From a virus: 64,000 bases of DNA. Below are positions 53,706 through 64,000 of this stretch, in pieces; position 1 is the stretch's first letter, and every line of letters starts with the position of its first letter. A program made the position numbers and the translations under genes. The notes under the pieces are model-generated. The model worked only from the letters and a program-made list of their open reading frames with translations, was not told the origin of the DNA and searched no databases. The stretch spans positions 5,560-69,559 of IMG/VR virus record IMGVR_UViG_3300009545_000004; one strand, written 5' to 3'.

Positions 53706-55184
53706 GCAAGGGTGGCGGCCAGGTGCAAGAGACATCGAAGGAGCGCGCGCTGGCCGAAGTCGGCGTGCAGCAGATGCAGGACTTCAAGGCGCGATGGCTC
53801 CCGGTGCAACAGCGCTTCGCCAAGAGCGTGACCGAGGCCGGTGCCCCGGACTCCTTCCAGCGGCGCCAGGCCGTCTCCAAGGCCGCGATCGACACGACGG
53901 CCCGCTTCGGCCAGGCCGCCGACAGGCTCGACGCCACGGCCGCCACTTCCGGCCAGCTCGGCAGCAGCAAGCAGAAGCTCGGCCTCACCGGACTGCAGAG
54001 CGACCGCGCGACTTCGATGGGACTCGCCGAGACTGCGGCCAATTCCGCGGTCGACGATGCGTATGTCTCGGGACTCAATGCCGTCACGGCACTCGGTCGC
54101 GGCGAGAAGTCGACGGCCATCGGCGGACTGCAGACATCCGCAGCGCTCAGTGGGCGCCAGGCCGCCGCTGATGCTGACCAGGCGCTGGCCGATCGGGCCG
54201 GCCAGTACCAGCTCGCCGGCACGCTCGCGGGCGCGGCCGGCTACGGCTACGCGAGCAGCTTGAGGCCTGCCCAACCAGGCCTCTCCGGCACGCTGCCGAG
54301 CGGCGGCTCCTCCGTGGTGCTCGGTGCGCAGGACGACGAATTCGTCACCAATCCACAAGCGGGGTATTGATCATGAGCGGATTCTTTGGCGGCAGCGCCG
54401 AGTACCTGTGGAACCCTGATGCGGCGGGGCGGCAATTTCTTCAGCCCAAGCTGAAGGGCCTCTTCGGCGGCGACGACGCAAGCACCTCCAACACCGCCAA
54501 CGATATGTTCGCGCAGCTCACGCGCGACCAGTGGCAGAGCTACGTGACGAACTACGTGCCCTACGAGAACGACCTCATCAAGTACGCGATGAGCACGACA
54601 GCGGTCGACGATGCGATGAAGAGCGCGAGCGCCGACGTGAACAGCGCGTTCGACAACAGCACAGCGGCGACGCAGCGCCGCCTCGCCGGCCTCGGCCTCA
54701 CGCTCAGCCCGGACGAGCAGGCGGCATCGACCCGCTCGACAGGCCTGGCCCGAAGCCTCGCCGACGTGAACGCGCAGAACACCGCGCGCGATGCCACGGT
54801 GGCGCGCCAGCAGTCGATCCTCGGCAACCCCACGCCACGCATCGGCGGCCTCTCGGGAGTCTCGTGATGATGGACAGCGGCACCTACGGACTCGGCACCA
54901 GCATCCGCGGCCCGGCAGCGGCAGGCCCGGGGCTCGCCTCGCTCGGCCAGCAGCAGGAGGGCCTCGCCACCAAGTTGCTCGGCCAGGCCGCCGACGAAGA
55001 GCAGCGGCGCAACCTGGAGAACCAGCAGCGCGCGCAGCAGGAGAAGCAGGCCAAGACGCAGCTCGGCACGACGGTCGGCGCGGTCGGCGGTGCGGCGCTC
55101 GGCGCCCAGTACGGCTCGGTCGGCGGCCCGTGGGGCATGGCGATCGGCGCGCTCGTCGGAGCCCTCGGCTCGCAACTCTTCTAG
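53702..55184 (+). other. Three small internal virion/ejection proteins (53702-54370, 54373-54867, 54867-55184)
   Basis: Gly/Ala/Gln-rich, Gly-zipper C-termini; position before large ejection proteins. Confidence 0.65.
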
Positions 55185-55193
55185 GAGGCGGAC

Positions 55194-56930
55194 ATGCCTT
55201 CAGCATGGCAAGGAGCAGCGCAAGGCCTCGAATCCGGCTTCCGGATGGCGATGCAGCTCGATCAGCAGCAGCGCTCGAACCGGCGCCAGGACGCCGCCGA
55301 CGCGCGCCAGGCCGGGCTCGATGCGCAGGCGCAGGAAGACCGCCAGCGCACCTTCGAGCGCCAGCAACTCTCCGACACGGCCGGTGCGGTGCAAGCGCAG
55401 GGGGCCGACCTGGTGTCGAGCCTGCAAGCGCGCATCAACCGCGGCGAGACGCTGACGAAGGCTGAGCAAGCCGACTGGGCGGCAAGCTACAAGGCCAACC
55501 AGGAAGCCCGGCAGCAGGTGCTGACGCAGCGCGGCGCGCCCGACTTGGACGCGATCAAGGCCGCACGCGCCGAACGCGCGCAGAAGGTTGCCGCGGGCAC
55601 CGCAACGCCCGACGAGCTGGCGACCTACCTCAAGGAGGGCACCGGCATCAACGCGGCCGACTGGGTGCGGCCCGCGCCGGATCAGCCGTCGCCCATCGAG
55701 GCCAACGGCGGCCGGATGATCCAGGCCTTCGACAAGGGCGACCAGGCCGGCATCATCAAGGGCCTCAACTACGCGCTGGCGCCACAGATCAACCAGGGCG
55801 TGGGCGAGCAGACCGGGCGCGGCAAGGTGCTGAAGAAGGAAATCGACAGCGTGGTCCCGGTGCCCACGGTCGGCCCCGATGGTCAGCCGACGCCCCCCGG
55901 CCAGGACGCCGGCCCGCCGACGCACGGCATCGTCAACCTCAAGGTGTGGGTGAACAACGGCAAGGCCGGCCCGACGCTGCCGCCCGAGTCCGGCGCGCCG
56001 CCCGGCGTCACCGGCTACTACATCGCGCCGCTCACCGAAGGGCGCGGCAGCGGCCCGGACGCCAGGCCGCTGCCGGTGTCGTTCGACAAGGTGAAGGACT
56101 ACATCTCCAACCAGATGCAGCTCGCGCAGCACCTCAACGAGAGCCCGGACGCACAGGCCAAGCTGCAGGAGTACGTTGACACACACGGTGACGATGAGAA
56201 CTTCTCGAAGCTGGCCGCGAGCGCCGGCATCACGCCGCGCAAGAAGCAGTTCGAGGACGTGACGATCAAGGCAGGCGAGAAGCGCCTGCGCTACCAGGTC
56301 GAAGCGGACGGCAACCGCATCGGCGAGCCGCAGGTGCTCGACAACCCGAAGGAGTTCCGCGACCCGCTGGATGCCGCCCGGCAGATCATGGAAGACAACC
56401 CCGGCATGTCGCTGGTGGACGCTGCCGCGCTGGCGCAGCGCGTCGGCCTCGCGCGCCAGCCGACGAAGTACAGCGGCGGCGGCCTCGCGGGCCCGGGTGG
56501 TGGCGGTGGCGCCGGCGGTGGTGGTGCCGGCAGCGGCAGCGTCGGGCTCGACAGCTTCACGCCCGGCCAGCGCCGCTACTACCAGACGACCAAGGAGCTG
56601 ATCGACAAGAAGGAAGAGCAGATCGCCAAGCGCGAGGCCGAAGCCGATCAGAACTACCGGGCCGAGCTGACGACCCTCAAGGACGATCCGCTCACCTCCA
56701 CCGACGAGTCGCGCGCTCAGAACAAGGCCGATCGCGCGGCGCTGAAGAAGGAGTACGAGGCACGTCGGGCGAAGTTCGATCAGGACCGCGAAGGCATCGC
56801 GCAGAACCGTGCCGACCTGGAGCGCCGCACCGGCCTGAAGGGCACCGACGACGTGAAGGCCAGCAAGCCCCAGCAGCCGGGCAAGGGCAAGCTCACCGCT
56901 GACGCGGCGGCCACGAAGTTCGGCTTCTAG
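55194..56930 (+). CDS. Internal virion (ejection) protein
   Basis: 578 aa, AGGAGG RBS, Gln/Ala-rich N-terminus. Confidence 0.7.
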   Translation: MPSAWQGAAQGLESGFRMAMQLDQQQRSNRRQDAADARQAGLDAQAQEDRQRTFERQQLSDTAGAVQAQGADLVSSLQARINRGETLTKAEQADWAASYKANQEARQQVLTQRGAPDLDAIKAARAERAQKVAAGTATPDELATYLKEGTGINAADWVRPAPDQPSPIEANGGRMIQAFDKGDQAGIIKGLNYALAPQINQGVGEQTGRGKVLKKEIDSVVPVPTVGPDGQPTPPGQDAGPPTHGIVNLKVWVNNGKAGPTLPPESGAPPGVTGYYIAPLTEGRGSGPDARPLPVSFDKVKDYISNQMQLAQHLNESPDAQAKLQEYVDTHGDDENFSKLAASAGITPRKKQFEDVTIKAGEKRLRYQVEADGNRIGEPQVLDNPKEFRDPLDAARQIMEDNPGMSLVDAAALAQRVGLARQPTKYSGGGLAGPGGGGGAGGGGAGSGSVGLDSFTPGQRRYYQTTKELIDKKEEQIAKREAEADQNYRAELTTLKDDPLTSTDESRAQNKADRAALKKEYEARRAKFDQDREGIAQNRADLERRTGLKGTDDVKASKPQQPGKGKLTADAAATKFGF

Positions 56931-56932
56931 CC

Positions 56933-59900
56933 ATGGCAAAACAATGGGCCGACATCGCGAAGTCCCCCGACTTCGCGAGCCTTGCCGACGACGACAAGGA
57001 CACCGTTCGCCAGGCGTTCTTCGATAAGGTCGTCGCGCCCGAGCTGGCGCCCGATCAGATCGACACGACGCGCTCGCGCTTCTATGGCGCCTCGGGCTAC
57101 GGCAAGCACGCGCTGCCGGCCGACATGAAGCCGTCCGACGCCGGCCCGGGTCGCGGCAGCGGCGACGCGCGCTACCAGCCGCCGCTGGCCGACACCACGG
57201 CACCCGCTCCGGCGGCGCCCGCAGCACCCGCCTCGGTCGGCCTGGCCGGCCCGCGTGGCCGCTTCGGCGGCACCTGGAGCGGCGTCGACGCGACCCCCGA
57301 CAGCGGCTCGGTGCTCGATCGCGTGACGCAGCAGCCGACACGCAACCCGGCCGGCGACGGCGCGCTCTCTGACGACTTCATCGCGGCCTTCCGCTCGAAG
57401 CTCGCCGAGGCGCCGCCCGAAAAGCGCCTGGCCGCGCTGCAGGCCTACGCCGCGAGCCCCGGCATCTACGGCCGCGCCGCCCAGTCGATCCTGGCCGACG
57501 TGAACCGCCAGAACGCCACCCCGATCAACCCGGACGACGAGGCGCTGGCCGGCAAGCTGATCAACGCGCCGCACGTGGTGCCCGCGCCGCAGCCGCAGCC
57601 GCTGGCTCCCGCGCAGTCCGTGCTGGCACGCGACACGGCGCGCTTCCCCGACATCACGCCGACCTATGGCGACGTGATGGACCGCACCACGCCCGAGGAC
57701 ATCGCCAAGCGCCGCGACCTGGCCGCCGGCCTCGGCGACGAGCGCGCCAAGCAGGCGCTCGAAGACCCGCAGAAGGGCCTCGACGACATCGAGAGCGCCC
57801 GCCGCCAGCGCTGGGCCGAGGCGCACCCGATCGCCAGTGCGTTCGGCTCGGGCGGCGCGCAGGCCATGAGTCTGCTGAACGCGCCGGCTGCGGCCTCGGA
57901 ATGGCTCAACACGATTGCCGTCAACCCGGTGCTGACGAACCTCGGCTTCAAGGCGCTCGCGCGTACCGCCAACGTGCCCGGCACCGAGTACTTCGCCCGC
58001 GCCGCAGCCGACTACATGCCAGCGGCGGCCGGCGGTGGCGGCGACAAGGGCATGAAGGAGGCCTGGGACAACGACAAGTTCATCCCGTGGCTGACCATCA
58101 ACATGGCCGCGCAGGCGCCGCAGATGGGCCAGCAGTTGCTCGCGGCGATGGCACCCGAGCTGCGTGCGGTGATGCTGCCCGCGATGGGCGCGCAGCAGGC
58201 CGGCAGCAGCTACCAGCAGGGCGACAGCGGCACGGCCGCAGTGACGAAGGGCGGCATCGAGTGGGCCACCGAGCACCTGCCGTTGCACGTCTTCGACAAG
58301 CTGAAGGACGCGCTCAAGGCGCTTCCCGAACCGCTGCGCGGCGCGGCCATCACCGAGACGTTCAAACGCCTGATCGCTGGCGGCGGCGCGATCACGGCGT
58401 CGGCGCTGGCCGAGGGCGGCGAGGAAGTGGCCTCGCAGTTCGGCCAGAACATCGTCGACAAGTACGTGCAGAAGCAGGACACGCCGCTGACGAAAGACCT
58501 GGCGTCGTCCGGTTTGCTCGGCGCGGCGATGGGTGTCAGCATGTCCGGGCCGCACCTGGTGCACATCGCCAAGGGCCACGAGACGGCCGGCCCGGCGCGC
58601 GAAATCGCCGCCGCGATCGACGCCGCGAACCTGCGCAACCCGACGCCCTGGCAAGTGGCCGACATCGCAGGGTTTCACGTGGAGCCGGTGCTGGCCGACG
58701 AGCCGCCCGACATGCAGCGCAAGCAGCGCGACAAGGTGTTCGAAGGCCTCGCCTCGCAGTACGGCGTCAATCCCAACGCGGTGAAGGAGGCCAAGAAAAC
58801 GGCCGCCGGCATGCCGCTCTACGACGTGGGCCCGTTCTACAAGCGCTTCATCGGCGCGCTCGATGCGCGCGGCGGCGTGGCCGGCCATGTCGACCCGCAC
58901 GCACTCAACACGCTCGACGCCGCACCGGCCGTTGCACCCCCGCCGGTCGACCCGGCCACCGCGCCGCTGTCGGCCAAGGAGCTGAACCGCATCGAGGTGC
59001 TCGGCCGCAAGGCCCGCGGGGCGCCCGCCACCACGATCAAGGACTTGGACGGCAACACCATCCAGGTCGCCGCGCAGGAACCCCAGCCGCTGACGCACGA
59101 CGAGGCGCGCGAGTTCCTCGGCCTGATGGAGCGCATGCGTGGTGCCGAATCTGGCACCGAAGTGACGACAGGGGCCCCAAAAGAGACGACAGGGGCCCAG
59201 GAAGAGACGAAACCCCCGGAATCCGAGACGAATCAGGCCGCGGAAGTGACGACGCCGGCTCCCGCGCCCGCCACCCCGCAGGACGCCGCGGTTGACCGCA
59301 TCGCCGAGCTGTTCGGCAAGAAGCCCGCGGAAGTCACACCGAGCGACATCGCCGCGCACGACTCGGCCACCTCTCCGACCAACGATCGCCCCGAGCCGAC
59401 CGACGCGCAGAAGGACGCCGGCAACTACAAGATGGGGCACCTGAAGCTCGGCGTGCTGAACCAGTCCGTCGAGAACGCGCAGGGCAGCGAGCGCAAGTCG
59501 AAGACCGACGCGCCGGAGCAGTGGACATCGGAGATGGTGGGCGGCCACTACGGCTACCTGGTGGGCATCAAGGGCCGCGACGGCCAGCCCCTGAAGGGCA
59601 TGGACAAGGAGCGCATGGACGTGCTGTCCAAGCCCGACACGCCCGAGAACTACGACGGCGTGGCCTTCGTCGTCGACCAGGTGAAGGAGGACGGCACGCC
59701 CGACGAGCACAAGGTGCTGGTGGGCTACGACAACGAGGCCGAGGCGAAGGCCGCGTACCTCTCGAACTACCCGAAGGGCTGGAAGGGCCTCGGCCACATC
59801 AGCACGACGACGATGGACGGCCTGCACACCTGGCTGACCACCGGCGACACCTCGAAGCCGTTCTACCAGCCCGCTGCCGCGCCGGCCGAGGCACCCGCGG

Positions 59901-62900
59901 CCCGCGTCATGGGCTACGCCGGCCCCACGCCGAAGAGCAAGAGCGCCATCGAGCTGCGACCGAACGAGGACGGCACGCTGACCCCCTGGCATGAGGGCCA
60001 CGAGCTGCTCGACTTCGACTCGGGCGATCCGGTGCGCGTGCCCGCCGCCGCGACGAATGCGCAGGCCGCCGACGCGATCCGCGCGGCCGGCTCCTTCGGC
60101 AAGTCGATGAAGCTCTACGGCGTCGAGGAGGACGCGCCGGCCGCGAATGCAAGCAGTCCCCAGGGCGTGACGTCGCCCATGTCGGCGCCCCCAGGGAAAT
60201 CATCCGCTGCGACGCCAGCCTCCACCGAGGAGGAGCGGACGAAAGTGCCTGCGCCGGCTCCCGCGTCGTCCACTGCGCCGAGCGTGGCCGACATCCACGC
60301 GATGGCGGACCAGAAGGGCATCAAGTGGAGCCGCGACCGGAAGTTCATGGCGCTGAGCAAGCTGATCACCGGCAAGCCGCACCTGGACGATCTGAACGCG
60401 GCGGAGCGGCATGCGGTGTTCGAGCGCCTGAGCCGCGAGCCCGACAAGGCGCCCGAGCCAGCGCCGATCAACGGCGAGAAGGCGACCCGCGACGAAGTGG
60501 TGGCGCAGCTCGAAGCCGGCGGCAAGGTGATGCGCTTCGGCGAGGTGACGTGGATCGAATACAGCGACGCACGCGACACGTGGGTCGTCAAGAAGCAGTC
60601 GGATGGTGCGACCACGACGGTCGGCCCGGCCGGTGGGCGTCCGGGCCAGGAAAAGCAGGCCGCCATCGAGCGCGCGATCGTCTCGTGGGATTTCGGGGCA
60701 GGCGAACCCGCCATCGCCGACGTAGCCAAGCGCACGGGCGTCCCGCTCGACTGGCTCGAAACCCGCAAGCACGCGCTGACCGAGGGCTGGAGCGACGCGA
60801 AGATTCGAGCGCAACACGCCTGGGAGCTTGCCGATCGCAACGTCAAGGCGGCCTACAAGTACAAGCCGACCGGCTACGACAAGCAGGAGGAAATCAAGTC
60901 TCAGCTCGTTACCGAGTTCGGCGGCGAGGCCGCCGTGGCGAAGCGGCCGACTGCGTTCGCGATGGAGCTGGCGAAGCGCTTCAACGCCGAGGCCGATCGC
61001 GTCAACGCAGCCGCCGAGACGCCGGGCACGCTGGAAAACGCGCGGGCCGAACGCGATGACGCGAAGAAGGCGGACGAGCGCATGGGCCACATGCACAAGG
61101 CCAATCTGGAAGAAATCAGCCTGGCCGCCGAAGAGCTGAAGCGAATGGAGCGGCAGGGCCGGCTCACCGACGAGGACCAGCAGGCCATCCTCGACATCGA
61201 GCGCACCTCGAAGGACTCATACGAGACGGCCTGGCGCCTGCACAAGCTGCTGCAATCGAAGAAGGCCGCCGGCAACGACACGCTGCCGGTCGGCAACCGG
61301 GGCGAGGCCGCCAACGAGGCGGCACCTGCCGCGCAGAAGCCGGCCGACGACGACCTGGGCGCGATGTTCGACGAGCTGCTGGCCGAAGAGACAGCCGCCG
61401 CCGCGCCACCGGCACCCGCGCCGGCGCCGCGCAAGCCCGCGACGCCGCAGGTGCCCAACGAGCCGGGCACGAAGTACGTGCTGCCGAGCTTCGTCACCCA
61501 GCAGCAGCGCAAGAAGAGCCAGCCAGGCGAGCGCACCGCGACGCAGGCCGCCGCGAGCGCCGCGCTCAACAGCGCCAAGGCCCTCGGCAACGCGATCGAC
61601 GGCCTCGGCGAGCTGTTCGGCGGCCCTGGCAAGCTGGGATCTGGCCCGGCCTTCGACGAGAAGACCTACGCCAAGGCCAAGCCGTATTTCCAGGCGGCCA
61701 TCGCCAACCTGCAGGACGCCGGCAGCGACATCCGCGAGGCGATGCGCGCCGTCATCAAGCTGGTTCTCGACAAGTTCGGCGCGGACACGGCCGCCCGGAT
61801 GCGGCCCTACGTGATCCGTTTCGTGGAAGAGATGCGCAACAATGCGCAGCAGCAGCAGCAGGAGCAGCAGCAGCAGGAGCCGACGAATGAACCAGGCCGA
61901 CGCGACCCTCGCGCAGTGGACAATGGCCAAGAGCCGGGAAATCAGCCAGGAGTGGCCGATGGGGGGCATGGCGGAGCAGGATCTGATCGACACCTGGCGC
62001 CGACGCCGGCCGAAGATGGTCGCGCGCCTGGAGCGGCTGAAGATCCTTCAGGAAATGGCCCACGTCCTGTGGAACCTGAAGGCGGACGCGGCGCACGCCT
62101 ACCGGAAGGCGGGGATGGGGCCAACGGACGCCCGGGAGCAGGCGGAACGGGAGTGGCTGCTGAACGAGCCGGAGACCGAGGACTCGCCCGAAGTGGACCC
62201 GCTCGATCAAATTACCACGTTGCCGACCCCGAGCAACTGATCGGCGGCACGCCGAAGGTTCGTTTCGCCCGCAACCGGGCCGCCATCGAGGCGCTGAACG
62301 CGCTGCAGGCCGAGGGCCGCGCGCCCACGCCGACCGAACTCGACGCGATGGCCAGCTACATCGGCTGGGGCTCGTTCGGCCAGGAACTCTTCAACGGGAG
62401 CTGGGACCGCCCGGCGCCCAAAGCCGCGTGGGAGAAGGAAGACGCCTGGCTGCGCGAGCACCTCGGCAAGGAAGCCTGGCAGGCGGCGCAGAACTCCATC
62501 ATCAATGCCCACTACACCGACCCGATCACGGTCGGCACGATGTGGGACATGGTGCGCGCGCTCGGCTTCACCGGCGGCCGGGTGCTGGAGCCGAGCCTCG
62601 GCATCGGCAACTTCTACGGGATGATGCCGCGCGACCTGATGGCGCAGAGCCAGCTCACCGGCATCGAACTCGATCCCACCACGGGCGCGATGGCGCAGTA
62701 CCTCTACCCCGAGGCGAACATCCAGATCAAGGGCTACCAGGACAGCAAGACGGCGGACGGCTTCTATGACCTGGTGATCGGCAACTGGCCGTTCGCGAAG
62801 GACGGGCCGCCCGGGGATCGGCGCTACGCCAAGCTCAACCCGTCGCTGCACGACTACTTTTTCCTGAAGGCGCTCGATCAGACGCGGCCGGGCGGCATCG

Positions 62901-64000
62901 TCATCGGTGTCACCAGCGCCGGCACGATGGACAAGAAGGGCCGCGCGACGCGCATGGAGCTGGCGAAGAAGGGCGAGCTGCTGGGCGCCTTCCGCCTGCC
63001 CTCCGGGGCCTTCGAGAAGTACGCCGGCACGTCCGTCGTGACCGACATCCTGGTGTTTCGCAAGCGCGAGGCGCCGCTGGCCGATGTCACGAAGGAGCCC
63101 TTCATCAACCTCGGCGAGCACATGACGCCGGCCGGCTCGACGATCCACGTCAACGAGTACCTGCTGGCGCACCCCGAGAACGTGCTCGGCACGCTCAACT
63201 TCGGCAGCGGGTCGACCTACGGGCGCCCTTCGATGATCGTGGACCGCCCGGCCAACCTGCAGGAGCGCATGGGCGAGCTGGCTGCGCGCATGCCGAGCGA
63301 CGGCTACCAGCAGCGCGAGAACAGCGTCGACACGCAGCACTTCATCACGAACAACACCAGCGACCGCCAGGGTGCGATCACGCTGGACGACAAGGGCGGC
63401 CTCTTCGTCGTCAACGGCGAGCACCTGATCCCGCTCGAACAGGCCGTCAAGTACAAGCTGAAGGACGCCGCGAAGACCAAGGCGCGCGAGCAGCAGCTCA
63501 AGGAACTCGTCGGCATCCGCCGCGCCTATGGCGCGCTGATCGATGCCGAGCGCGCCGCCGCCGACAACGTGGAGACGCTGCGCACCGCGCTGCGCGAGAA
63601 GTACCAGGCCTTCGTCGCCGCGCACGGCCCCATTGCCGACTCGCAGGGCCTCGCGATCCTGGATCGCGCCAAGGACCCATTCCACTCGACGCTCGACGCG
63701 CTGGAGCACAACGGCAAGCCGGCGCGTGTCTTCACCGAGTCGACGGTGCGCGGCAAGAAGCGCTCGGCCACGCCCAGCGTGCGCGAGGCCTTCGTCGCCG
63801 CGCGCAACGAAAGCCTGCAGATCGACCCCGAGAAGATCGCTGCCGCCGCCCGCAAGAGCGTGGCCGACACCGTGGCCGAACTCGAAAAGTCCGATGCGAT
63901 CTTCAAGACGCCGGTCGGCAACTACGAGGTCAGCGATGTCTACCTGTCGGGCAATGTGCGGCGCAAGCTGCGCGAGGTGCAGGACGCGCTCGCCGCGGGC
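56933..64000 (+). CDS. Giant DarB-like polyvalent virion protein (InPase + N6-adenine MTase), 3'-truncated by the window
   Basis: ATG at 56933 is in frame with InPase PTDAQKDAGNYKMGH..DEHKVLVGY (~59351-59863) and MTase NAHYT, VLEPSLGIGNF, GNWPF, LHDYFF (~62243-63070). Absent from the ORF track, consistent with no in-window stop. Confidence 0.88.
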   Translation, partial: MAKQWADIAKSPDFASLADDDKDTVRQAFFDKVVAPELAPDQIDTTRSRFYGASGYGKHALPADMKPSDAGPGRGSGDARYQPPLADTTAPAPAAPAAPASVGLAGPRGRFGGTWSGVDATPDSGSVLDRVTQQPTRNPAGDGALSDDFIAAFRSKLAEAPPEKRLAALQAYAASPGIYGRAAQSILADVNRQNATPINPDDEALAGKLINAPHVVPAPQPQPLAPAQSVLARDTARFPDITPTYGDVMDRTTPEDIAKRRDLAAGLGDERAKQALEDPQKGLDDIESARRQRWAEAHPIASAFGSGGAQAMSLLNAPAAASEWLNTIAVNPVLTNLGFKALARTANVPGTEYFARAAADYMPAAAGGGGDKGMKEAWDNDKFIPWLTINMAAQAPQMGQQLLAAMAPELRAVMLPAMGAQQAGSSYQQGDSGTAAVTKGGIEWATEHLPLHVFDKLKDALKALPEPLRGAAITETFKRLIAGGGAITASALAEGGEEVASQFGQNIVDKYVQKQDTPLTKDLASSGLLGAAMGVSMSGPHLVHIAKGHETAGPAREIAAAIDAANLRNPTPWQVADIAGFHVEPVLADEPPDMQRKQRDKVFEGLASQYGVNPNAVKEAKKTAAGMPLYDVGPFYKRFIGALDARGGVAGHVDPHALNTLDAAPAVAPPPVDPATAPLSAKELNRIEVLGRKARGAPATTIKDLDGNTIQVAAQEPQPLTHDEAREFLGLMERMRGAESGTEVTTGAPKETTGAQEETKPPESETNQAAEVTTPAPAPATPQDAAVDRIAELFGKKPAEVTPSDIAAHDSATSPTNDRPEPTDAQKDAGNYKMGHLKLGVLNQSVENAQGSERKSKTDAPEQWTSEMVGGHYGYLVGIKGRDGQPLKGMDKERMDVLSKPDTPENYDGVAFVVDQVKEDGTPDEHKVLVGYDNEAEAKAAYLSNYPKGWKGLGHISTTTMDGLHTWLTTGDTSKPFYQPAAAPAEAPAARVMGYAGPTPKSKSAIELRPNEDGTLTPWHEGHELLDFDSGDPVRVPAAATNAQAADAIRAAGSFGKSMKLYGVEEDAPAANASSPQGVTSPMSAPPGKSSAATPASTEEERTKVPAPAPASSTAPSVADIHAMADQKGIKWSRDRKFMALSKLITGKPHLDDLNAAERHAVFERLSREPDKAPEPAPINGEKATRDEVVAQLEAGGKVMRFGEVTWIEYSDARDTWVVKKQSDGATTTVGPAGGRPGQEKQAAIERAIVSWDFGAGEPAIADVAKRTGVPLDWLETRKHALTEGWSDAKIRAQHAWELADRNVKAAYKYKPTGYDKQEEIKSQLVTEFGGEAAVAKRPTAFAMELAKRFNAEADRVNAAAETPGTLENARAERDDAKKADERMGHMHKANLEEISLAAEELKRMERQGRLTDEDQQAILDIERTSKDSYETAWRLHKLLQSKKAAGNDTLPVGNRGEAANEAAPAAQKPADDDLGAMFDELLAEETAAAAPPAPAPAPRKPATPQVPNEPGTKYVLPSFVTQQQRKKSQPGERTATQAAASAALNSAKALGNAIDGLGELFGGPGKLGSGPAFDEKTYAKAKPYFQAAIANLQDAGSDIREAMRAVIKLVLDKFGADTAARMRPYVIRFVEEMRNNAQQQQQEQQQQEPTNEPGRRDPRAVDNGQEPGNQPGVADGGHGGAGSDRHLAPTPAEDGRAPGAAEDPSGNGPRPVEPEGGRGARLPEGGDGANGRPGAGGTGVAAERAGDRGLARSGPARSNYHVADPEQLIGGTPKVRFARNRAAIEALNALQAEGRAPTPTELDAMASYIGWGSFGQELFNGSWDRPAPKAAWEKEDAWLREHLGKEAWQAAQNSIINAHYTDPITVGTMWDMVRALGFTGGRVLEPSLGIGNFYGMMPRDLMAQSQLTGIELDPTTGAMAQYLYPEANIQIKGYQDSKTADGFYDLVIGNWPFAKDGPPGDRRYAKLNPSLHDYFFLKALDQTRPGGIVIGVTSAGTMDKKGRATRMELAKKGELLGAFRLPSGAFEKYAGTSVVTDILVFRKREAPLADVTKEPFINLGEHMTPAGSTIHVNEYLLAHPENVLGTLNFGSGSTYGRPSMIVDRPANLQERMGELAARMPSDGYQQRENSVDTQHFITNNTSDRQGAITLDDKGGLFVVNGEHLIPLEQAVKYKLKDAAKTKAREQQLKELVGIRRAYGALIDAERAAADNVETLRTALREKYQAFVAAHGPIADSQGLAILDRAKDPFHSTLDALEHNGKPARVFTESTVRGKKRSATPSVREAFVAARNESLQIDPEKIAAAARKSVADTVAELEKSDAIFKTPVGNYEVSDVYLSGNVRRKLREVQDALAAG
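61887..62240 (+). CDS. Nested +1-frame gene (117 aa) inside the giant ORF
   Basis: AGGAG 7 nt upstream; globular-looking helical sequence while the main frame is a low-complexity linker. Confidence 0.6.
   Translation: MNQADATLAQWTMAKSREISQEWPMGGMAEQDLIDTWRRRRPKMVARLERLKILQEMAHVLWNLKADAAHAYRKAGMGPTDAREQAEREWLLNEPETEDSPEVDPLDQITTLPTPSN

Follow-up and report, generated by a model that had tools for sequence, protein, structure and literature searches.

A probable small gene, conserved and nested out of frame in the linker of giant DarB-like phage genes

Genes nested out of frame within larger genes are known in phages, the classical cases being lambda Rz1, which lies inside Rz in the +1 frame, and the overlapping genes of phiX174. 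Here we describe a related arrangement in a stretch of viral DNA of 64,000 nucleotides (nt), hereafter the window, which comprises bases 5560-69559 of the IMG/VR record IMGVR_UViG_3300009545_000004, a record of 69,559 base pairs (bp) with a 123-bp direct terminal repeat. In the window, a giant DarB-like open reading frame (ORF) contains in its +1 frame a second ORF of 117 amino acids (aa), which we call S. Our results indicate that the nested S gene is very probably real and that both frames of its DNA are used. As occurs with Rz1 and the phiX174 genes, S would be a complete small gene with its own start, lying within a larger gene in another frame and easily missed by gene callers. Unlike in these classical cases, S is the constrained and probably the older frame, while the host ORF uses the shared DNA as an unconstrained linker; moreover, the overlap joins two large multi-domain blocks, and free-standing relatives of S exist. 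The nesting of out-of-frame phage genes is known, and what appears to be new is a conserved small gene whose out-of-frame reading links two large blocks of a virion anti-restriction protein. The embedding of Rz1 in Rz is also stated for Bcep22-like phages in PMC9144972.

As regards function, the nearest described system is the Dar system of phage P1. According to PMC12810830, P1 DarB is carried in the virion and protects the injected DNA from type I restriction, and its action against EcoB and EcoK is shared by small proteins packaged along with it, such as Ulx. The likeness is an analogy of role, in that a giant virion methylase-helicase would be accompanied by small accessory proteins encoded next to it, S presumably being one of them; unlike S, Ulx is a separate gene downstream of darB. 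S and Ulx proved unrelated (hhalign probability 0.5%, E 0.13), and no S-like ORF was found around P1 darB (best E 0.64). JC1 gp69, the giant protein of a relative, has been detected in the virion by mass spectrometry (PMC9144972). The polyvalent proteins described by Iyer et al. in 2017 (PMC5512222) include a methylase-helicase dyad with an N-terminal LPD36, and the host ORF of S is likewise built of several modules. By text search of that article, the terms 'overlapping', 'frameshift' and 'alternative frame' are absent, 'embedded' and 'nested' occur only in other senses, and the description does not include a gene hidden in a linker. Our literature search, which covered mainly the main texts of openly accessible journals, turned up no account of any gene lying inside DarB-like or polyvalent genes.

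The giant ORF occupies positions 56933-64000 of the window on the + strand, where it runs off the window and continues past the terminal repeat; once the circle is closed across the 123-bp repeat, it is 4,649 aa long. The S gene lies at 61887-62240, also on the + strand. Its ATG (61887-61889) follows a Shine-Dalgarno-like AGGAG (61875-61879, + strand) after a 7-nt spacer (61880-61886), and its TGA is at 62238-62240; all these elements, which an earlier, sequence-only reading of the stretch had pointed out (the original prediction), can be read directly in the DNA. The translation runs from MNQADATLAQW to TTLPTPSN. In the codon phase of 56933, the main frame is stop-free through S and consists there of a linker (61850-62209, + strand), first a run of Gln/Glu encoded by (CAG)n and then a Gly/Ala/Pro/Arg/Glu-rich stretch, whose amino-acid sequence is unconserved. 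The part of the linker that lies over S is simply the S DNA read one base earlier. Translation of both frames bears out that S is shifted by +1 against the giant ORF, whose own reading at this place is a linker of low complexity. S had also been said to end just before the methylase domain, which is correct if the domain is counted from GGTPKVRF at 62243, but the conserved methylase module opens at NYHVADPEQLIGGTPKVRF (62210), 31 nt before the S stop. The 3' end of S thus overlaps the start of the module over 31 nt (62210-62240, + strand), where the main frame reads NYHVADPEQL.

The +1 frame bears the marks of a real and conserved protein gene, as had been proposed. The genome has a guanine-plus-cytosine (GC) content of 66%, and its real genes have a third-position GC content (GC3) near 0.9. 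GC3 is ~0.9 in the main frame up to ~61850 and again from ~62240; from ~61880 to 62240, the +1 frame has a GC3 of 0.90-0.93 and the main frame one of 0.38-0.43. The same switch of phase is seen at locus L002 (loci are designated by L numbers). Moreover, a profile of four S proteins matched 240 cluster representatives at E <= 1e-3, 124 of them at E <= 1e-10, among 1.84 billion representatives. The best 150 of these 240 matches were all 54-275 aa long, so S as an in-frame domain of a giant protein is not seen among the best 150. The family is recognized by the motifs W..RP.M..L...G.L..LA.V and AGM.PTDAREQAE.EWLMLEPE. With 100 sequences, AlphaFold2 modelled S as a five-helix bundle followed by an acidic tail, in agreement with the helical protein with an acidic tail that had been anticipated; the mean predicted local distance difference test score (pLDDT) was 91.6 and the predicted template modelling score (pTM) 0.84.

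Frame-specific selection, a check that the original prediction had called for, places the constraint in the S frame and none on the amino acids of the main frame. The ratio of nonsynonymous to synonymous substitution (omega) was estimated pairwise over 37 loci, with 157 pairs used and 40 printed. Nei-Gojobori estimates, although the overlap of frames biases them, put omega below 0.7 for the S frame in 39 of the 40 printed pairs (1.08 in the remaining pair), and omega for the same bases in the main frame was at least 1.0 in 39 of the 40 (0.80 in the remaining pair). The low omega of the S frame and the high omega of the main frame argue that S is the frame whose amino acids matter. Likewise, the main-frame linker sequences are unalike between loci.

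Although its amino acids appear unconstrained, the main frame is not free to acquire stops. The first 37 loci comprise the window, a contig of a Burkholderiaceae metagenome-assembled genome, 33 distinct viral contigs, the Pseudomonas phage vB_PaeM_USP_25 and a distant copy in another bacterial genome; their GC content ranges from 0.44 to 0.69. Each of the 37 has its S in the +1 frame of a giant ORF without a stop across it, a nested arrangement that the original prediction suggested looking for among homologues. A scan of metagenomes added 23 loci, 13 of which are nested in an open giant frame. Note that a stop can arise in the giant frame only where an S codon ends in T and the next codon starts with AA, AG or GA. 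No such stop-prone context ended in T (0 of 1,298, in 36 loci), compared to 216 of the 3,044 S codons elsewhere. Synonymous resampling with the codon usage of each locus (floor 2e-4 per locus) gave 1.3-11.4 expected stops per locus and a probability of an open frame from 0.26 to <0.0002. Loci with a GC content of 0.44-0.57 should have 5-11 stops in the giant frame and have none. Over 22 representatives less than 60% identical to each other, the summed log10 P is -49.9, a sum of per-locus probabilities that are not fully independent, since the loci share ancestry; despite this ancestry, synonymous sites have turned over many times at <60% identity. The free-standing S genes described below provide a natural control, with 3 (L053), 4 (L050) and 24 (L066) stops in the frame equivalent to that of the giant ORF. 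This pattern indicates that the giant frame is held by selection to stay stop-free across S, while the amino acids encoded there are unconstrained.

S also carries start signals of its own. An ATG was present within 14 alignment columns of the S start of the window in 34 of the 36 aligned loci, the remaining two having a GTG; at the distant locus L043, the ATG, found by hand, follows GGAGG. A conserved ribosome-binding site was also looked for. A 4-5-nt core of AGGAGG occurred at -18 to -4 of the S start in 25 of the 34 non-duplicate loci, compared to 703 of the 5,361 other ATG triplets of the giant ORFs (13.1%; binomial p 1.4e-15). In addition, upstream stops close the S frame at variable distances, in L008 as near as 7 codons. 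These signals suggest that S probably initiates its translation independently of the giant ORF.

The interval from the last upstream domain to the methylase module is taken up by S. The module opens with an N[YF]H[IV]xD motif, which a pattern search located in 34 loci. Relative to this motif, the end of S varies from 113 nt before to 31 nt after it; the 31-nt overlap with the module seen in the window is common to L003, L004 and L006, and elsewhere S ends 5-113 nt before the motif. The upstream domains are of at least two kinds among the loci and, since they vary, S goes with the methylase module. It can also be found outside an open giant frame, as in the ten remaining metagenome loci. L053 is a free-standing S gene, and so is L066, on a 348-kilobase contig with a GC content of 0.42. 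In L050, a free-standing S directly follows the R subunit of a type I restriction enzyme (L050 2-3294), and in L068 a protein of 443 aa with an S-like domain at each end directly follows an HsdM methylase (identified by Pfam; L068 157-4353). The association of S with type I restriction-modification rests on these two cases, L050 and L068, and is a hint, no more, that S deals with such methylase/helicase enzymes. In L051, L052, L057, L062 and L054, S is intact but the giant frame extends no further than the first residues of the methylase module, breaking off in the first four of them right after 'DLHIDDPLAIV'; these four look like S genes kept after loss of the giant gene. At L064, a ferritin-like gene lies upstream of S.

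The nested layout is not confined to uncultured viruses. The methylase segment matches 91 phage records at E <= 1e-20, 11 of which were examined. Eight of these carry a significant nested S ORF, namely USP_25, Mwe-JY07, PEp14, Itty13, POI1126, SopranoGao, VvAW1 and Atu_ph08, with E-values of 1e-40 to 7e-7 against small local databases. In all ten whole-phage records examined that have the nested layout, the giant coding sequence (CDS) alone is annotated and the nested ORF is not. That gene callers miss S is thus correct for these phages, but S is called on short metagenome fragments. In Itty13 (L047, MW460249), the GenBank CDSs of the DarB-like region run counter to both the tblastn match and an open frame of 2,271 aa, which lie on the other strand; this is probably a mis-annotation in GC-rich DNA.

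The original prediction had proposed that S is a partner or inhibitor of the methylase-helicase and suggested modelling the two together; support for a partner comes from the model alone. The complex of S with the 596-aa N-terminal segment of the methylase module (62210-63997, + strand; chain 1 of the model) reached interface scores (ipSAE) of 0.67, 0.68 and 0.63 in three runs, while the best of three controls reached 0.00; this score is the model's own confidence and not a measurement. The same mark was reached by 58 of 80 solved complexes and by 2 of 110 mismatched pairs, counts that hold only roughly here, as the alignments used were our own. At least 97% of the contacts are common to the runs, and the partner has a pLDDT of at least 84. 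The predicted contacts involve residues 22-29, 62-74 and 79-83 of S and residues 407, 411-417, 476, 482, 485-488, 492-493 and 496-497 of the 596-aa segment. The patch predicted to touch S, which is defined by the complex model only, corresponds to 63428-63700 (+ strand). It lies behind the catalytic domain, among well-conserved positions, and Y415, K418, S478, D489, P490 and L498 near it are invariant or nearly so in the alignment (A5). From these models, S may well bind the methylase-helicase module, a reading that we slightly favour.

Searches with S itself gave the following results. The S protein of the window has no match in Pfam, NCBIfam, PHROGs or PADLOC, and Foldseek found nothing for it in the PDB at E <= 0.001. 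The best row in BFVD, Q8W6J4_2 (E 0.28, probability 0.99, template modelling score 0.51, target length 1,093), is, to go by its length, probably the second half of orf33 of phage PBC5; it would then be S's own relative, with no independent clue to the fold. Matches in the ESM Atlas all scored below 0.9 and are leads only. The structure 2apl_A, the best of 48,161 chains by VIA-align (Z 5.4, root mean square deviation 2.9, 61 aligned), was rejected as a fold match, its Z lying below the chance level of helical bundles. A tblastn search of plasmids matched neither S nor the distant S of L043. In the bacterial genomes searched, of the order to which genome G001 belongs, S is rare: 2 of 401 match it at E <= 1e-5, one of them being G001.

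Taken together, we have good confidence that S is a genuine gene inside the giant ORF, self-started and with both readings of its DNA in use, its place as a docked subunit of the module being conjectural. In the model that we propose, the S DNA would have two uses. Ribosomes on the giant ORF would translate it into a Gly/Ala/Arg-rich linker, unconstrained in sequence, that connects the upstream modules with the methylase-helicase module, while a second set of ribosomes would initiate at the Shine-Dalgarno site and ATG of S itself and produce the small protein. S would carry the amino-acid constraint, and the giant frame would only have to stay stop-free. The layout would most likely have arisen when the upstream and the methylase-helicase genes were made into one ORF, with the existing S read through out of frame. 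The S protein would then dock on the helical region behind the catalytic domain of the methylase and might act as a small subunit of the module, either an assembly or packaging partner or a regulator, travelling with it.

The free-standing copies of S, the codon phase and the omega values together argue that S is the older reading and that the linker is derived. S had originally been described as overprinted on the giant gene. The overlap itself stands, but the polarity is probably the reverse, with codon usage, purifying selection and free-standing relatives all on the side of S. A fuller version of this history, which we put forward only tentatively and hold to be rather unlikely as a whole, is that S came first, that the giant protein of this large group of phages arose when the gene of an upstream virion protein and the methylase-helicase gene fused across a working S, and that S is co-packaged, docks behind the methylase domain and either gates the methylase-helicase until injection or meets the type I enzymes. 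If this were true, it would be a mode of fusion that hides an essential subunit, one that we did not find described in the papers searched.

A number of observations speak against a self-started S inside a translated giant ORF. Besides the bias of the omega estimates, the shared ancestry of the loci and the nature of the complex score, all mentioned above, no function for S emerged from the fold and family searches (libraries, Foldseek, VIA-align). The giant frame is closed in 10 of the 23 metagenome loci, which are free-standing or remnant copies, so S can do without the giant ORF and is not nested everywhere. Nine of the 34 loci have no Shine-Dalgarno core at the chosen start. For the window alone, the probability of an open main frame is 0.26 (with the ORF taken from an upstream ATG at 61842); as the frame one base before a high-GC3 gene is stop-poor anyway, its open main frame is by itself unremarkable. 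A contig from an RNA library, identical to 61889-62010, indicates presence only. Phages BcepIL02 (L044 2190-2510) and 8P (L076 1100-1411) have in the same place as S a +1 ORF of ~105 aa, running from an ATG to where the methylase module starts, that does not match the S profile significantly (E 0.048 for BcepIL02, 0.3 for 8P); these ORFs may be very diverged S genes or an analogous insert. Finally, in phage PBC5 (L046, AF448724, 1403-1979), orf33 (2,185 aa), the upstream ORF, shares the frame of S and terminates at the S stop; the methylase frame is still open across S, and the annotation divides the giant gene in two. The upstream domain is likewise in frame with S in the database proteins P0041 and P0049. 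From the in-frame layouts of PBC5, P0041 and P0049, a fusion product of the upstream domain and S may be made in some phages.

These layouts keep in play, as a minor rival, the idea that S is the C-terminal domain of the upstream part, produced by a programmed +1 ribosomal frameshift as in dnaX or the phage tail chaperones. Two products with a shared N-terminus would then be expected, the upstream part with S and the full giant protein. In addition to PBC5, P0041 and P0049, this idea can draw on phrog_938 ('endolysin', 2,185 positions), which PEp14-type S matches in its last ~100 positions (2084-2173, E 1.8e-19). The length of phrog_938 is that of PBC5 orf33, and the S domain seems to have entered PHROGs only via the split annotation of the PBC5 type. 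The split layout of PBC5 itself is either a real form or an error in the 2001 sequence: its relative Atu_ph08 (L072 536-931) has the nested layout, and one frame change ~40 nt before the S ATG, possibly a sequencing error, separates the two. Also against a frameshift are the conserved ATG and the excess of Shine-Dalgarno cores, the closure of the S frame upstream at variable distances and the free-standing S genes with their own starts. Moreover, no conserved slippery motif was seen, the region before the ATG is unconserved between loci, and +1 shifting usually needs a stop or a slow codon, none of which was seen at 61815-61886. We therefore regard a frameshift origin of S as improbable.

The original prediction had also likened S to small TnpV-like proteins. 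In an alternative built on this, S would be a TnpV-family protein of DNA transactions, an accessory to excision or transposition with no relation to the methylase-helicase, and its position an accident of packing. TnpV (PF14198) and S do share a similar size, a helical nature and an occurrence in mobile elements; a rank-20 ESM Atlas cluster (score 0.81, a lead only) has PF14198 in 13% of its members, and the distant members (L043, PEp14 type) share, by eye, 'W..(L)P....L...G.L' and 'EA.E......L.PE'. Pfam did not confirm the resemblance. PF14198 (cut-off 27 bits) gave no match to the window S at E <= 0.1, none to the S of L043 and none in 100 members of the S family at E <= 1; against the six-frame translated genome, it found nothing at E <= 0.01, and 14 control genomes likewise gave none. 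Membership of S in the TnpV family is, on this available Pfam test, rejected. Furthermore, S keeps its place directly before the methylase module while the upstream modules change, and the complex model puts it on that module. A TnpV-type role with an accidental position has very little probability.

Still less credit is due to the view that the giant ORF is illusory and that three genes are present, the main frame being open by chance in GC-rich DNA or by an assembly error. The stop-poor frame beside a high-GC3 gene, the value of 0.26 for the window and the annotation of PBC5 as two genes can be cited in its favour. It does not account for the open main frame in 37 of 37 loci, including those of low GC content where several stops are expected, nor for the summed probability, and free-standing S genes do gather stops in that frame. 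In addition, none of the nested loci has a stop that would end the upstream part by itself. As for the assembly, contigs from three other DNA runs, from other studies, are identical to the window without insertions or deletions over 61684-62065, 62051-62381, 61889-62329 and 61939-62424 (the runs were compared as contigs only). Independent contigs being identical over both junctions, the frame relations are not an assembly artefact. Lastly, that the +1 ORF is a chance open frame without a product, its conservation mirroring the main frame, is already contradicted by the data and has next to no probability: high-GC genomes are indeed rich in spurious ORFs (43 of at least 60 aa in 55000-64000), but here it is the main frame that is unconserved (omega >= 1) and the S frame that is conserved, GC3 follows S, the fold is confident, small homologues form 240 clusters, and S is intact where the giant frame is broken or absent.

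With regard to the host ORF, its only Pfam match in the first 2,355 aa is an inorganic-pyrophosphatase-like domain (InPase, PF18823; E 1.1e-32) at aa 824-968 (window 59402-59836). The methylase segment (62210-63997) has no Pfam match and matches phrog_10089 'DarB-like antirestriction' (E 1.8e-181) and phrog_11801 'DNA methyltransferase' (E 4.5e-75). Its 596 aa are 33-53% identical, over ~99% of their length, to giant proteins that RefSeq names 'DarB-like antirestriction', and a motif I-like EPSLGIGNF and a motif IV-like NWPF can be read in it by eye. Further along the giant ORF are matches to Helicase_C (E 4.5e-11) and ResIII (E 5.2e-05, 23.6 bits); a match to SNF2-rel has 18 bits, under its cut-off of 24.9 bits. 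These matches identify the giant ORF as a DarB-like methylase-helicase polyvalent protein, in which an N6-adenine methylase module is followed by an SF2/SNF2 helicase in one polypeptide. In type, it corresponds to the virion-type polyvalent 'DarB-like' anti-restriction ORFs, here in a temperate phage.

DarB-like giants take up about one fifth of the genome in many cultured phages of Burkholderia, Ralstonia, Klebsiella, Erwinia, Pseudomonas, Vibrio, Agrobacterium and other hosts, with the presumed function of defeating host restriction. As long as a conserved gene inside them goes unannotated, the list of parts of this system is incomplete. A knockout or truncation of the giant gene in the S region also affects a second gene. 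The joining of two long proteins by an out-of-frame reading of the intervening gene bears both on how polyvalent proteins are built and on the origin of overlapping genes, and S is a concrete example of what the same-strand nesting rules of gene callers hide. Cultured phages with a nested S, for example PEp14, SopranoGao, VvAW1, Atu_ph08 and USP_25, allow direct testing.

Some minor observations concern the DNA around the S start. Directly before S, at 61850-61882, lies a (CAG)5 GAG (CAG)4 GAG tract, read in the main frame as QQQQQEQQQQE, which contains the AGGAG of S; L002 has (AAC)n (NNNN) at the place matching this tract. Reads were flagged as cut at 61837-61888, owing to the CAG repeat. 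Finally, the X2 and X3 contigs, ~85% alike and taken as a relative, join 61764 to 61996 with 9 other letters between, and a related phage without the region around the S start (61765-61995) may therefore exist in the same habitats.

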